Shown here piece by piece: positions 3,968-45,800 of a stretch of 64,000 nt of DNA (position 1 is the first letter of the stretch; each line of letters begins with the position of its first letter). Source of the stretch: Euglena gracilis (taxonomy: Eukaryota); assembly GCA_039621445.1 (NCBI GenBank), contig CP154954.1:40727572-40791571 (forward strand), in the 5' to 3' direction. The notes beneath the pieces were generated by a model that was not told the DNA's origin, ran no database searches, and was given only the letters and a program-made list of their open reading frames with translations. Position numbers and translations under genes: made by a program.

Positions 3968-6900
3968 ATGCCATGGTGCCTGTGGGTGGCGGTGCTGCTG
4001 GCGCTGCTCTCTGCCACGCGCGGGGAGACCGACGACACGGACGCCCCTCGTTGTGGTCCAGGCAAGCCCCATACGGACTGGCGCTGGGAAGCCCTTGACA
4101 GCTCTTTCTCAACAGCCTCCGTTGGGCAAGAAACAATTAGTAATTATTTTCAAAAGTAATCAGCACACAGGTCGATTGTCAGTGCGTTGACCGTTCTTTG
4201 CGCACATGATAATAACAACAAACATAAATGACAGCTTCATTCCCTGTTCAACAGGGCGGCACGGGATCCTGGACACCCCATGGTGGTGGGTGGGGGTGGC
4301 TGCCCCCTGTCCCCTCATGGTGGAAGGAGGCACCAGGCATCCCATCAACCTCTCCTCCCACCGACGGGGCTGCCTGTCTCCGATGCCCCAGCCACCTGGA
4401 CAGCAACCACTGCCCCCCAGGGCATCCCTGAGGACGGCCGCTGGGGGGCGGGGCAGGCGGGAGACTGGGGGGACACCCCCATGGCCTGAGCTTGTGGGGG
4501 CGATGGGGTTGGGCGAGGCCCCCCTACACATGCACACACACACACACACCCACCCACACCCACCCACCCACCCACACACACCAACACACACACACACACA
4601 CACACACACCAACACACACACACACACACACCCTGCGGGGGGGCACGCACACAACACACACACACACATCACCTAAACACACACAACGCGGCGCCGCACC
4701 CACCCACCCACCACCACGGTGGCACACACTCCACACACCCCCACACACACCACCCCCCACCCCACCCACACCACACCCCCCCACACACACACACCCACAC
4801 CACCCACCCACACACACACACACACACACACACACACACCCCCCCACACACACACACACACACACCACACACACACACACACACACACACACACACACAC
4901 ACACACACACACACACACACACACACACACACACACACACACACACACACACACACACACACACACACACACACACACACACACACACACACACACCCCC
5001 GGATGCCCTGCTGCCGCAGCCCCCTGGTCCTGTTCATGGTGCAGGCTGAGCCAGAGTCGGATCACCGCCAGACGGAGGAGGCGTTGACGGCGTGGCACAA
5101 GGCCGTGGGCGAAGGGGGCGTCCTTCATGCCTTTGAACGTTTTTGAACACTTTTTGCGTGGAAAACACCAAAACATGCAAAACCGTGCAATTAGGTCAAA
5201 CAGTGGGGAGACAGGAAATATGCATTTTCTGGCGTGCCGCGCTGAAAGAAAATTTCCACTGTTTTAGTGTGCTGCGCCCAGTAACACTGAATGTCCAGAT
5301 CAGAATAATTTAACCTCCGGACAGCTGTTTTGGAAGTTCATGTGCGGAGAGAGTGCCCTGATAAGTGCTCGCGATGGGGTGGTCGTACCTCTTTTACCTG
5401 AAGCTTGGAGGTTTGTTGGTCTGTTACCTCGCAAATTTTCATTCTTGTGCGCTGAAATCAGCCCCAGAAAGAGGACAATTGCAAGTTACAGAACCCAAAA
5501 CGAGTAAGGCAAACGTGGGCGAGCAGGAAGGCCATTTGTGGGCCATTCCAGAACCAGCCAGCACAGCACGGACCTTGCAGACTGGGTCTGGGCCAGTTCC
5601 GAGAGACGCCCTCCCGGCGACACGGTCACCGTCGTGCATCTCGTTTCCCGGCTAGAGGATGGGACATGGGCACGCCGTCAGCGGCTGCCCTGCCTCTGTG
5701 TGTCGGCCAGCGGCGGGCTATGGGGCTATGGGGCTGGGGGGGGGGGGGGGCTGCACCTCCCACAAACTCACCGTGTGCCAGATATCATCACTCAGCCAGA
5801 TCCCTGCGGGGTTTGCTGGACACAACCCCACGGTGTGGGAACTCAAAAGAGGGGGCACGGCCCCAGGAAACGAAGGAACAAGAATCGCCAGGTCTCAGGT
5901 CTCAGGTGCGGCCACACGCAGCTCTGTAGCCTGACCTGCCCACCCTTTGCCCCCTCGCTAATGCACCCCCATCTTTTGGTCCCCCACTCCCTAGCCTGCT
6001 TGTTGGACACAACTGGTCTCCACCCCTACTTTTGACCCGTTGTCCATTGGGGCCAACAATGCCCCCTGTTTCCCAGGACATGGGAGTCAGCATACTGCCC
6101 CCCTAAAGTTGTCCCCAATGAGCAGTTGGGGCCCATGCGCCATGGAGGAGGATGCGCACTCCTGGGGTGCCCCACCACCTTCGGGGGTTTTGAGAATGGA
6201 TTGGTGGGTGTCGGCCGTTGCCCCCCCCCCCCCCGGAGGTGAGGTGCACTCGGGCCCAACCGAATTCACCCATTCATCTGTTTTTCAGAGCCTACCCACC
6301 CATGCCCCCCCCCCCCAGGGTCATCCCACCTCAAGGGGGGGTGACCAACCCCACTCAAAACCTGAAAAGAAAATCCCAAGGATGACTGCAATTTCCCGCA
6401 ATTTCCCGCAGTTTCCCGCATTTTCCCGCAGTTTTTCCACAATTTTCCGCACTTTTTCCTTTCCGCTGTTTTTCCACGTGAACCTGAAACGGAAGGCGAA
6501 ATGAGTTCCGGCCATCCCTTGAATGTTTCACAAGGGAACCCAGGGGCTTTTTTTCTTCTTTTGTTACAATTTTACCAAAATTTACCAAACTTTTACCAAA
6601 TTTTGACAAAAACTGGCAACTTCTGGACCTTTTTTAGGTTTCCCCCCAATTTCTGCTTGGAATAATCTCGAGTCAGAAAAGTTTCGTATCCTGGATTTTA
6701 CCTGATGCCAAAATTTTTAGCATTTTTTTGCTTTTTTTTTATTTTTCACCCAAGAAATTCCATATTTCCAGCACCAGCGTGTTCCCAAATTTGCTAAAAT
6801 CATGTTTTTGACCCTTTTGTTGGGAAAAAAGGTTAACAACGGCTCAAAGCTTACATCCATGTTGCAAATGACCAAACTTGGGAAATTTCTCCAAGTGCCC

Positions 6901-42802: not shown

Positions 42803-45800
42803 ATGTCGGCAGACCCGTTCCCGCCGCTGCCGCCGGGCTGGGAGTGCCGCCTCCTGACGAGCGGCCGGTACATCTTCCTGGACGAGGCGTCGTCCACCAC
42901 CACCTTCAGCCACCCAGGGAGGGCGCTCACATGCACGTGTGCGCACAAACACACACCCGAAAGAAATGATTCATTCCCTTCTTGTGACTGCTCTCAATCG
43001 CTTTCAACTTTCCTCAAGTAGATGGAGTGGCTTCTTTGTTCCAGATTTTTGGCCCAGATTTGGGGGTGAACCATTCGACCAAGTTAGCTTCTGTTGGTCT
43101 GTAAGGAGCGCCTGCATCGCTCTCCCGGCGCATTTCGATGGCAAACCTCTCCTCATTCTGTTGTTGGCATTTTGCGTGCCATAGCCCCCCCCACAGGGAT
43201 GTATGGGAAGCCCGTTGGCATTGAGGGAGGTAGGTACAACTCTCCCACCCCCTAGATGTTGGGAGGGGCTGGACTCCCCCAGGCATAGATGGGAAGCCCT
43301 TCGGTTTTGAGGTGGGTGGTAGGGGGGGGGGGGTCCGGACCCTGGGGGGTGAGGTGGTTGGGGGGGGGTCCGGACCCGCTCCCCTCCCACTGGATGTTGG
43401 GAGGGGGAACCAGACCCCCCACCCCCCCTCCTTGGCTGGTTCCCTCAGCGCCAGAAAATGCAAGAAAATTTTCTCTTTTCGCTCACTTTTAAACACATTG
43501 CACTTTTTTTTTTTGATGGTTTGGTGTTTTCCACACAAAAAAAGATGTTCAAAAATTAAAAAATCACAAAGAACATTATTGGATTTTTTTTTCAAAGAAA
43601 AATCAGGAATTCTTCAAAAAACTGGCCTGGTTTCCGGAACCATTTTTCATAGAACCAAAAATTTTCCCAGCCCCTTTCGGGTTGGGGGGGGTCCAGACCC
43701 CCTCCCCAGGGCTTCCCACACATCCCTGCCCCCGCCCCCCCCCCACCCTGTCACCACCCGACCACGCGCCAGGAGTACCACTCGCCCAGCAAGCCGGGGG
43801 TGGGCCGGGCCGCCCTCGTCGCCTCGGGCCCGGCCGCCCCCCGCCCGGCGACGGCCTCCGTGGGGCTGCGGAAGCCATGCAGAGGGGAGGGGTTTTGCAA
43901 CGACCCTGTTCCGTGGGTGCTGTGAGGTTTTGACGGTGTTTGCAAAGGTGATGGGACAGACTCAAGCGTTTGAAACTTGTGAACAGTTTGGATTTGCCCA
44001 CAACCTTGGGTTGAAACAGATCTATTTTTTCTGTCCCTTGTCGTATCTTTTTCTTGAAATGCTTCTTTTTTTCAATTGTAAGTCCTGTTTCTGATGTTTC
44101 CCCAAACCACATCTTTGCGATGGGAACGGATGAAGGCAATTTGTGCACAAACATGCGAAACTACGCATTCAGCCACATATGAACATACTGCTTTCCTCAT
44201 ATTTCCGTACACTCGCCTTTCTATTTATACTTCTCTGCGTATTCTCCCCCATTCACCATGAAGTTTCCCATCCTCCCGTATCATCTTTCTTCCCGTTCAC
44301 TCAAACAGCCCGACGCCGCCGCAGCGCCACGCCGCCATTCCCCGACCTGCCCCCCGGCTGGGTCTACGGCGTGGAGGGGGCGTTCTTCGTCTTCCACCAG
44401 CTCGGGTCCGCGGTGTGCCAGTCCCGCCACCCCCTCACCGGCCGCCAGTACGCCGCCCCCCACGGCATGGGCAGCCCCGCCGGACCCCCCAGAGCGTTGC
44501 CTCCCGCCCCTCCCCCTTCCCGCCTGTGTCCCCGCCTGGCGGTTCCGTTGATGGTCGGTGCTCTGCGGCCAGCCCGAGGCCATGTGCCGAAGGCCACGGC
44601 GGGCCCCTCCCGCGGCCGGACGCCATCCGACCACAACTCCCCCCGCCCCAACGCGGCCCCGGCCCAGTTGCGGCCGCCCGCCCCCGGCAGTCCGATGGGC
44701 CGAACCGCCACCCCGGACAAGGTGAGGACCAGCACTGGCCCCACACATATGCGCAGCCTGGGAGCGAAAGCGAGAGTGAGAGAACTAGAGAGAGAGAGGT
44801 GTGTGTGTGTGTGTGTGTGTGTAGGTGTGCTTGTGTGCGCGAGTGGGTGTGGGTGTGTTTGTGAATACACACACATGCGCATGCAGGCACGCACGCACAT
44901 GTGTGTGTGTGTGTGTGTGTGTGTGTGTGTGTGTGTGTGTGTTTCGTTGTTGGGGTTCTCCGCTGGACCTCTTGCCGCCATTCCCCTGGCCTCCCCCCCC
45001 ACCTCAACGCACGGGCCCCGCGCTGCTGCGAGCTCGCTCCGCGGAGCGCAGCGCCCGCCCGGCCGGCAGTCTCCTCATGAGCCGCACCCAGGGCTGCCCA
45101 GGACTCCGGCAACTCCACGTAGCCTGTCGTTCGAACGTCCATTTTTTCCCATTTGTTTCTCGCCGGGAAGGAGTTGCTCTTGCAAGCTTTGATACAGGTT
45201 GGGGTCCCCCCCCCCCGCCTCCCGAATGTCCGCCCCCTCCCCACTGACCCCGACTGTTATTTTCATATTTTTGTGTGGTTGTTCATATTATTATATAGTC
45301 GTTTAATTTCATGTATCACACGTAGTTGAATCACAGTAACTTTTTGTATGCACATGCATTATATTAACCCCCCCCCCCCAAATACCCCCCCCCCCAAATA
45401 ACACCCCCCTTGGGGGCCGAATTCGCCCAAATAAGACACCGAGACCCCCACCCCCCGTGCACAACGTTCATAAGCAGATGTATTTCTTGTCCAGGAGTGC
45501 TCACGCAGACATGGTTTTATATATATACATATATACATATATATGTATATATTTGAAGGTCAGAACCGATTGACGGAGGACCTTAGACAATTTGTTCTTT
45601 GGGTTCATTGCTTCGTGCTCCAAATTGCTCATTTTTCAAAAATGGGCTGACCGCATTTTGGCGGCGCTTTCCAGATGCCAGGGATGCACTCCTGGACAAG
45701 GTATCCTCCACGCTGATATCGGACATTGTTCGGGAAGAACCTGTTCAGGCAGCAGTGCCCAAATACCCCCCCTGGACCCCCAGTTTGGGTGCCCAAATAA

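Follow-up and report, generated by a model that had tools for sequence, protein, structure and literature searches.

At least part of the nonconventional introns found in a 64,000-nt stretch of Euglena gracilis DNA (contig CP154954.1, positions 40,727,572 to 40,791,571; hereafter "the window", meaning this stretch at its full length) are regarded here, with moderate confidence, as insertions of transposons that bear terminal inverted repeats (TIRs) and make 8-bp target-site duplications (TSDs). One intron verified on RNA, 24357-24688, consists of one copy of a repeated transposon element and 8 further nt (3 + 5). The origin of nonconventional introns, along with the reason for their 3/5 geometry (3 nt before and 5 nt after a pair of complementary repeats), has been open since the 1990s; if this geometry is the footprint of a transposon with an 8-bp TSD, resources already available suffice to put the question to the test. 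The window, which is nuclear DNA from an organism of the Euglena type, contains no N and has a G+C content of about 45-70%; nearly every intron in its transcribed genes is nonconventional.

Both the 3/5 geometry and the idea of an origin from MITEs (miniature inverted-repeat transposable elements) are already known (PMC12501133, PMC3935182, PMC11282704). In these publications, the splicing code derived in 2025 from knock-in experiments is given as N3-CDG...CH'G-N5-6 with R as the first base of the following exon, and it was found in 61.2% of nonconventional introns (PMC12501133). The MITE origin of euglenid nonconventional introns was proposed in 2013 by authors to whom no euglenid transposable element was known at the time (PMC3935182), and a 2024 review called CAG/CTG a TIR and described the junction repeats as TSD-like (PMC11282704). 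Two background statements of a preceding sequence-only reading of the window, that a MITE origin had been suggested before and that positions +4..+6 pair with -8..-6, often as CAG/CTG, agree with the literature, and the pairing is also seen here on RNA. A full-text literature search, with supplements and many subscription journals outside its scope, returned no statement that the spacers sum to a TSD, no free CAG/CTG family, and no assignment to the hAT superfamily. The value of the finding is that of a sharp, testable explanation of the published code.

The RNA evidence, taken from public runs that bear the species label of the window, comprised two raw RNA-seq runs (X21 and X22) and two contig runs (X1 and X2), all mapped on positions 5020-25019 only. 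Fifteen splice joints are listed, with 65 further joints beyond these, and all joint counts given below are among the joints listed. Support for every listed joint comes from 16-31 raw reads of X21 and X22 and from one contig each in X1 and X2. Borders of the GT-AG or GC-AG type are displayed by 0/15 joints in any register permitted by the junction repeats, and 13/15 fit the register in which +4..+6 pairs with -8..-6, leaving spacers of 3 and 5 nt. The combinations CAG-CTG, CTG-CAG, CGG-CCG or CGG-CTG occur in eight of the 15 introns (including one with a 3+6 spacing, see below), CAT-ATG in one, only CA. and.TG in two, other paired triplets in three, and none in one. The downstream exon starts with a purine in 23/25 introns overall (the set is defined below) and in all 13 RNA-verified introns with the 3/5 register. 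The RNA joints can also be slid farther than random joints of equal lengths (mean 2.13 nt vs 0.71 +/- 0.27).

The 13 introns in the 3/5 register all lie on the forward strand. The N3-CAG...CTG-N5 form is found at 9377-9794 (followed by G; 30 reads), 9829-9928 (A; 29 reads), 10991-11049 (G; only 59 nt long, with a 10-bp helix; 18 reads) and 11859-12106 (G; 24 reads), N3-CTG...CAG-N5 at 9989-10967 (A; 8-bp helix; 23 reads), and N3-CGG...CCG-N5 at 22955-23874 (A; 27 reads). The intron 12177-12400 is paired as GGG/CCC in the same register without a CDG motif (23 reads, slide 3). Five more had been placed by the sequence-only reading exactly, within the slide of the joint: 15020-15758 (CAG/GTG; 17 reads, slide 0), 15793-16299 (GAG/CTT; 17 reads), 20640-22415 (CAA/GTG; 29 reads), 23964-24312 (CGG...CTG; 31 reads, slide 5) and 24357-24688 (26 reads). 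A sixth, proposed at 22476-22846 (371 nt), is refuted: the RNA skips 362 nt (joint 22481>22844, 29 reads, slide 4), and in the register shifted by +4, which provides GGC/GCC pairing and a following A, the intron is 22486-22847, i.e., the proposal was 9 nt off. That reading had resolved 18 introns that restore the frame when cuts are made 3 nt and 5 nt outside the repeats. The pairing itself is present in 18/18, and one of them is the intron contradicted by RNA. The mapped stretch takes in 13 of the 18; seven of these are absent among the joints listed, three of the seven (12483-13941, 16357-20363 and 20410-20540) being supported only by one open reading frame (ORF), and nine RNA-supported introns within 5020-25019 had been missed.

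The same window harbors free MITE-like elements with the same terminal trinucleotides, a claim of the sequence-only reading which withstood the controls applied. Scanning for CAG...CTG pairs located 40-3000 bp apart and complementary at no fewer than 10 of 12 terminal bases yielded 215 TIR pairs with a two-peaked flank identity: most had 0-4 of 8 matching bases, four had 8/8 and two had 7/8. These six of 215 pairs compare with 0-1 at six outward-shifted registers and with two in 20 block shuffles. Eroded TSDs are beyond the reach of such a blind scan, since at least 5/8 matches were found in 11/215 pairs in the true register vs 5-15 in the shifted ones. When the scan was opened to terminal repeats of any kind that have perfect repeats at their flanks, it returned, low-complexity runs aside, only CAG...CTG elements at a repeat length of 8. 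In total, the window contains at least eight non-autonomous MITE-like elements with 8-bp TSDs (7/8 or 8/8), seven of them with CAG...CTG at both ends; the TSDs are perfect in five elements, 7/8 in two and, additionally, 8/8 in the element 28028-28624 described below. The TIRs extend to about 20 nt and represent at least four families. Six of the seven free elements with CAG...CTG termini conform to the published splicing code on the forward strand.

Family F1 includes the elements 17676-18013 (CAG...CTG; TSD GTGCTGGC, 8/8) and 28244-28354 (TSD CTGGGAGC, 8/8), the latter nested in the predicted intron 28025-28629. The element 32746-32994 (CAG...CTG) is flanked by CCCCCAGT (8/8). Family F2 is represented by 33075-33189 (TIR 12/12; TSD GCTGGGAG, 8/8), which is 96% identical to 2573-2664, and by 2573-3009 (TSD 7/8). 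In family F3, 14141-14263 (TIR 12/12; TSD 7/8) lies inside the RNA-verified intron 14015-14861, and 19709-20002 (TSD CTCCGGAA, 8/8), found by homology, carries AAG in place of CAG at the left terminus. One more TIR element, 43194-43728 (CAG...CTG; TIR 11/12), has flanks matching at 6/8.

An intron and an element of this kind are connected most directly at 24357-24688. Its internal TIR element, 24360-24683 (324 bp), aligns over its full length with 34872-35194 (323 bp, forward strand) at a local score of 106, vs 22.8 +/- 3.3 for shuffles, and the termini of the latter were found with 1 and 4 mismatches. The homology begins at intron position +4 according to BLAST and ends at -6 according to the alignment, so the intron comprises the element, 3 nt on one side and 5 nt on the other. 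The 150-nt flanks of both copies are unrelated, with scores (17 vs a null of 15.0 +/- 2.2, and 27 vs 16.6 +/- 2.9) at or near background. The two ends of the neighboring intron 23964-24312 match the termini of family F1 at 9 and 10 of 14 positions, and those of 24357-24688 at 9 and 11; scores of at least 9 are reached by 50/7368 background CDG sites. The flanking 8-mers of both introns match at 5/8. Thus, the grouping of introns with MITE families envisaged in the sequence-only reading is found in part within the window: one intron is a copy of a repeated element and two have F1-like termini, the rest being without a family link.

A second case is predicted at 28025-28629 (forward strand), in the first coding exon of a putative WD40-repeat gene. 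Here, an element at 28028-28624 with CTG...CAG ends and TIRs complementary at 10/12 positions is flanked by the perfect 8-bp TSD GCTGGGAC. The predicted intron lies 47 nt downstream of the ATG at 27978; in the frame of this ATG, the unspliced sequence runs into a stop after 54 codons, and the spliced one continues into a GT-AG intron and the WD40 exon. Judging from the frame, this would be a case with an 8/8 TSD in which the removal of the element is needed to keep the frame open.

The 8-mers at the intron ends were compared in two sets. For the 18 introns of the sequence-only reading, whose counts of 8/8, 6/8, 6/8 and four times 5/8 proved exact, 68/144 positions match, vs 37-58 at twelve shifted registers. 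For the statistics set of 25 introns, in which the corrected intron was swapped in and the RNA introns with a 3/5 register were included, 95/200 positions match, vs 69.8 +/- 5.7 when left and right flanks were shuffled among introns, and 0/20000 permutations reached 95. The 13 RNA-verified introns alone gave 47/104 vs 36.1 +/- 4.0 (p 0.006). In the set of 25, flank identity rises with TIR quality (rho 0.44, p 0.027), as would be expected if both decay with age.

If the geometry does stem from TSDs, splicing would most likely proceed as follows. The insertion would yield a transcript in which CAG...CTG is bracketed by two copies of the duplicated target 8-mer, t1-t8. The terminal repeats would pair on the pre-mRNA, and the nonconventional splicing activity would cut at a distance of 3 nt upstream and 5 nt downstream of the helix, i.e., after t5 in both copies. 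In the mRNA, t1-t5 of the left copy would then be joined to t6-t8 of the right one, restoring the sequence that preceded the insertion, and the excised intron would consist of the element and the other copy of the 8-mer. The orientation of the element would be irrelevant because both ends read CAG. The reported preference for Y/R (pyrimidine/purine) at both junctions and for C at exon +3 (PMC4770533), together with CCAGG at +3..+7, that is, C at intron +3 (PMC11170887), fit such a mechanism, since the same preferences fall on equivalent positions of both 8-mers.

From this we infer that the elements were insertions before they were introns, that splicing sets in as soon as an element has inserted, and that most nonconventional introns arose in this way; the immediacy of splicing draws support from the reported knock-ins, in which nonconventional introns placed into a foreign exon were spliced (PMC12501133). 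A more far-reaching proposal, put forward only tentatively, is that nonconventional splicing as such might be the RNA-level reversal of the insertion of one transposon superfamily, a hairpin being read and both TSD copies being cut after t5, in line with the published Y/R. If true, exon insertions with a purine at t6 would be silent from the first generation, and the intron circle would be predicted to carry the element with one TSD copy. The share of about 70% that nonconventional introns hold among the introns of a Euglena genome, the spacers of 3 and 5 nt, and the slidable junctions would be explained as well. If the geometry is a transposon footprint, the window would moreover offer a clear example of a transposon family being tolerated by its host through removal from RNA, and of a route to intron gain without the spliceosome.

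Several observations weigh against a transposon origin or against its generality, those on the 8-mer columns, the spacers, the helices and the family links also lending weight to coincidence, i.e., to the possibility that the spacers are set solely by splicing enzymes measuring from the helix, the CAG...CTG MITEs being unrelated (with some copies spliceable) and most nonconventional introns having arisen otherwise. Within the 8-mer, the excess identity is limited to columns 1-6: column by column, the observed number of matches departs from expectation by about +5, +5, +5, +5, +3 and +3, then by -0.1 and -0.7 beside the repeats, and columns 1-5 match in 71/125 comparisons vs 24/75 for columns 0, 6 and 7 (Fisher p 0.0008). 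Hence, the old introns look like ones with a central repeat of 5-6 nt, and the excess over background expected from the sequence-only reading is present in the total relative to permuted pairs and missing from the columns next to the repeats. Two of the 15 RNA introns, both on the forward strand, deviate from 3+5. The intron 8941-9302 has CAG...CTG with spacers of 3 and 6 nt (CTG, 6 nt, then G; 16 raw reads and two contigs), and 14015-14861 (17 reads) fits no 3/5 register, its best helix by eye having spacers that sum to 7. Together with the column profile, these two introns, whose spacers do not sum to 8, weaken the generality of the proposed origin. The knock-ins required exactly 3 nt at the 5' side, and at the 3' side 5 nt were used and 6 tolerated (PMC12501133). 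In most introns the helix is short and no link to a family is seen within the window; a second copy is present for 1/27 introns and two share family termini, 64 kb being a very small sample. The second copy at 34872-35194 has flanking 8-mers matching at 1/8 only. The perfect 8/8 case at 28025-28629 lies outside the RNA-mapped stretch and rests on frame and sequence, and the statistics set of 25 includes five calls of the sequence-only reading that neither RNA nor a strong ORF supports.

Coincidence nevertheless seems unlikely in view of several agreements: the free elements and the introns share both the terminal trinucleotide and the sum of 8, the homology between the intron 24357-24688 and its second copy has its limits at +4 and -6, and flank identity increases with TIR quality. 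The predicted 8/8 case at 28025 points the same way, as does a newly gained intron with an 8-nt repeat already in print (PMC4770533). A TSD of 5 or 6 bp as the primary length, a candidate prompted by the column profile, was rejected in view of the asymmetric element ends that it would entail and of the free copies, all of which have 8 bp.

The printed case just mentioned is a strain-specific, recently gained nonconventional intron of the Euglena agilis gapC gene with eight-nucleotide direct repeats, described in 2016 (PMC4770533). Its authors explained the 8-nt repeat of this gapC intron 4 differently, by repair of double-strand breaks during intron gain, so that junction repeats would be repair scars and not transposase duplications, which counts against the transposon origin; the repeats of old introns, short and junction-centered, are in keeping with it. 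Break repair is considered improbable, for it predicts neither a fixed length nor fixed termini. The free copies outside exons, in which exact 8-bp repeats directly adjoin conserved TIRs of 20 nt (at least four families), bear a cut-and-paste signature. The reverse direction, with nonconventional introns coming first and then turning mobile, e.g., via circular RNA, is very improbable: although excised nonconventional introns are circular with full-length ends (PMC11282704) and intron-derived mobility has been discussed (PMC11146597), RNA-mediated reinsertion predicts no exact 8-bp TSD against TIRs, and the free copies reside inside introns and between genes without the N3/N5 flanks of a parent intron.

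With the transposon origin as the preferred explanation, the introns of the window can be compared with known systems. They do not differ from the euglenid nonconventional introns described so far (PMC3935182, PMC4770533, PMC12501133), sharing with them the borders, pairing, spacers, purine at exon +1 and slidable repeats, all seen here on RNA. What is added to this literature are the co-resident free elements with 8-bp TSDs, the intron that is an element copy, and the cuts after the fifth base. The earlier MITE hypothesis (PMC3935182, PMC11282704) has the same idea of origin, and its relevant passages mention neither a TSD length, nor a free family, nor a link between spacers and TSD. The sliding-distance histogram in PMC12501133 (Fig. 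1B and SI) and the junction tables in PMC4770533 may already contain the length distribution.

Introner elements of Amoebophrya resemble the present case in that they form non-canonical introns whose ends are brought close to each other by inverted repeats of 8-20 nt, with direct repeats over the exon/intron boundaries; these direct repeats have 3-5 nt and a variable position, and a modified spliceosome is suspected, in contrast to the fixed 8 bp and fixed spacers here (PMC7789003). The introners of Micromonas and Aureococcus (Huff 2016, as covered in PMC11282704) are likewise short DNA transposons with TIRs and TSDs that become introns, with part of the splice signal contributed by the TSD. 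They differ in being spliceosomal (GT/GC-AG) and in having 3-nt TSDs, the introns here being non-GT-AG. Of the two hallmarks of introners, spliceosomal GT/GC-AG removal is replaced in the window by non-canonical borders at the 15 RNA joints, and the presence of many copies in unrelated genes is represented by one intron with one further copy in 64 kb and by two introns sharing termini. Insertions of the maize elements Ac/Ds, which belong to hAT and have an 8-bp TSD, are reported to be spliced from pre-mRNA as introns (Giroux 1994). The removal of Ds relies on spliceosomal sites and is usually imprecise.

The elements may belong to either of two superfamilies, hAT-like or Merlin. The TSD length of 8 bp fits hAT-superfamily MITEs, for which the terminal consensus is YARNG; the element termini CAGAC, CAGGC, CAGGG and CAGGT agree with it at the first three bases, and at the fifth G is found in some only. 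The hAT label is unproven, since Merlin is present in E. gracilis with two families, both of which make 8-bp TSDs (PMC8101967). The TSD length in the window likewise fits Merlin-derived MITEs, for which 8-9 bp are typical. Also to be set against the transposon origin, a Pfam search of the 10 longest of the window's 105 ORFs of at least 170 aa recovered no family and hence no hAT or Merlin transposase. Two metagenome scans with the element termini gave 0 matches and nine single matches without a partner repeat (the best candidates for a partner having 7-8/18 mismatches), which were dismissed as chance.

As for target sites, the core CTGGGA is common to three of the eight TSDs, those of 28244-28354, 33075-33189 and 28028-28624; the first base is G or C in all eight, and the last is C in five. 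Such a shared core and ends may reflect a target-site preference. At the F1 element 17676-18013, positions 17633 and 18013 are linked in one contig of low depth from run X2, with 35 other letters placed between them; the product resembles a diverged version of the left flank and, after it, one TSD copy. This contig could represent an empty site of the MITE or RNA from which the element was removed.

A tentatively named glycosyltransferase-like coding region lies at 12108-24723 (forward strand), a 320-aa ORF interrupted by 12 nonconventional introns. Its frame is open through all 12 junctions from 12108 to the stop at 24721-24723, nine of the 12 being confirmed on RNA. The name derives from a Pfam search on eight single exons, in which the exon 20541-20639 gave a sub-threshold match to Nucleotid_trans (E 0.076). 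The annotated 5' end is provisional, as a transcript contig of the same depth reaches upstream exons to ~5.6 kb and also ~7.1 kb. The three junction pairs resting on the ORF are all on the forward strand: 12483-13941, with flanking 8-mers at 0/8; 16357-20363, 4007 nt long, with 6/8 and containing the MITEs 17676-18013 and 19709-20002; and 20410-20540. The 73-nt side of the joint 14014>14862 is consistent with the exon 13942-14014, downstream of the first of these.

Farther upstream on the same strand, six introns of the sequence-only reading (4056-4381, 4415-5015, 5111-5618, 5662-6142, 6159-7055 and 7171-7652) have 3/5 pairing and restore a 222-aa open frame; none of the six is among the RNA joints listed, RNA covering 5020-25019, and a contig covers parts of the exons 5619-5661 and 7056-7170. 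The intron 4415-5015 is filled mostly by a CA-rich microsatellite (~500 bp at 4500-5005). Two more predicted forward-strand introns with 3/5 pairing are 35336-35703 (flanking 8-mers 3/8) and 42912-43755 (5/8), the latter containing the element 43194-43728.

In the putative WD40-repeat gene, GT-AG introns were read by eye at 28667-29022 and ~29139-29566, right after the predicted nonconventional intron, so that both intron types seem to occur within one gene. The WD40 exon gave a sub-threshold Pfam match (E 0.041). When compared with longer homologous proteins, the exon 29020-29139 had no match, and in the PDB it hit designed WD40 proteins only; the gene name is therefore tentative. The gene may resemble PAK1IP1/MAK11.

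Other repeats were encountered as well. A family of ~440 bp with poly-C/GGGCAATTG ends, internal direct repeats and inverted ends is found at 15145-15580, 41009-41463 and 62947-63438; its homopolymer ends blur any TSD. It was considered as an intron-forming element and rejected, being nested in the intron 15020-15758, with termini other than those of the intron, and not of the CAG/CTG type. Within introns, the stretches 15025-15691, 19027-19693, 21695-22361 and 23029-23695 reach a summed contig depth, in runs X1 and X2, of up to ~7000 vs 119-190 in exons. They are repeats of high copy number that stem either from many transcripts or from carry-over of DNA into the libraries.

Where the RNA reads deviate from the window in 5020-25019, T>C is the most frequent class, with 25 places in either of the raw-read runs vs 12 and 11 for A>G; the deviations could reflect strain or allele differences. 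At the homopolymer tracts of 5730-5750, 14192 and 18732-18749, many RNA reads end in long loose poly-G or poly-C, probably a sequencing or alignment effect. Finally, 50542-51042 is occupied by a 500-bp palindromic tandem array that matches its own reverse complement at many registers, 19 nt apart.

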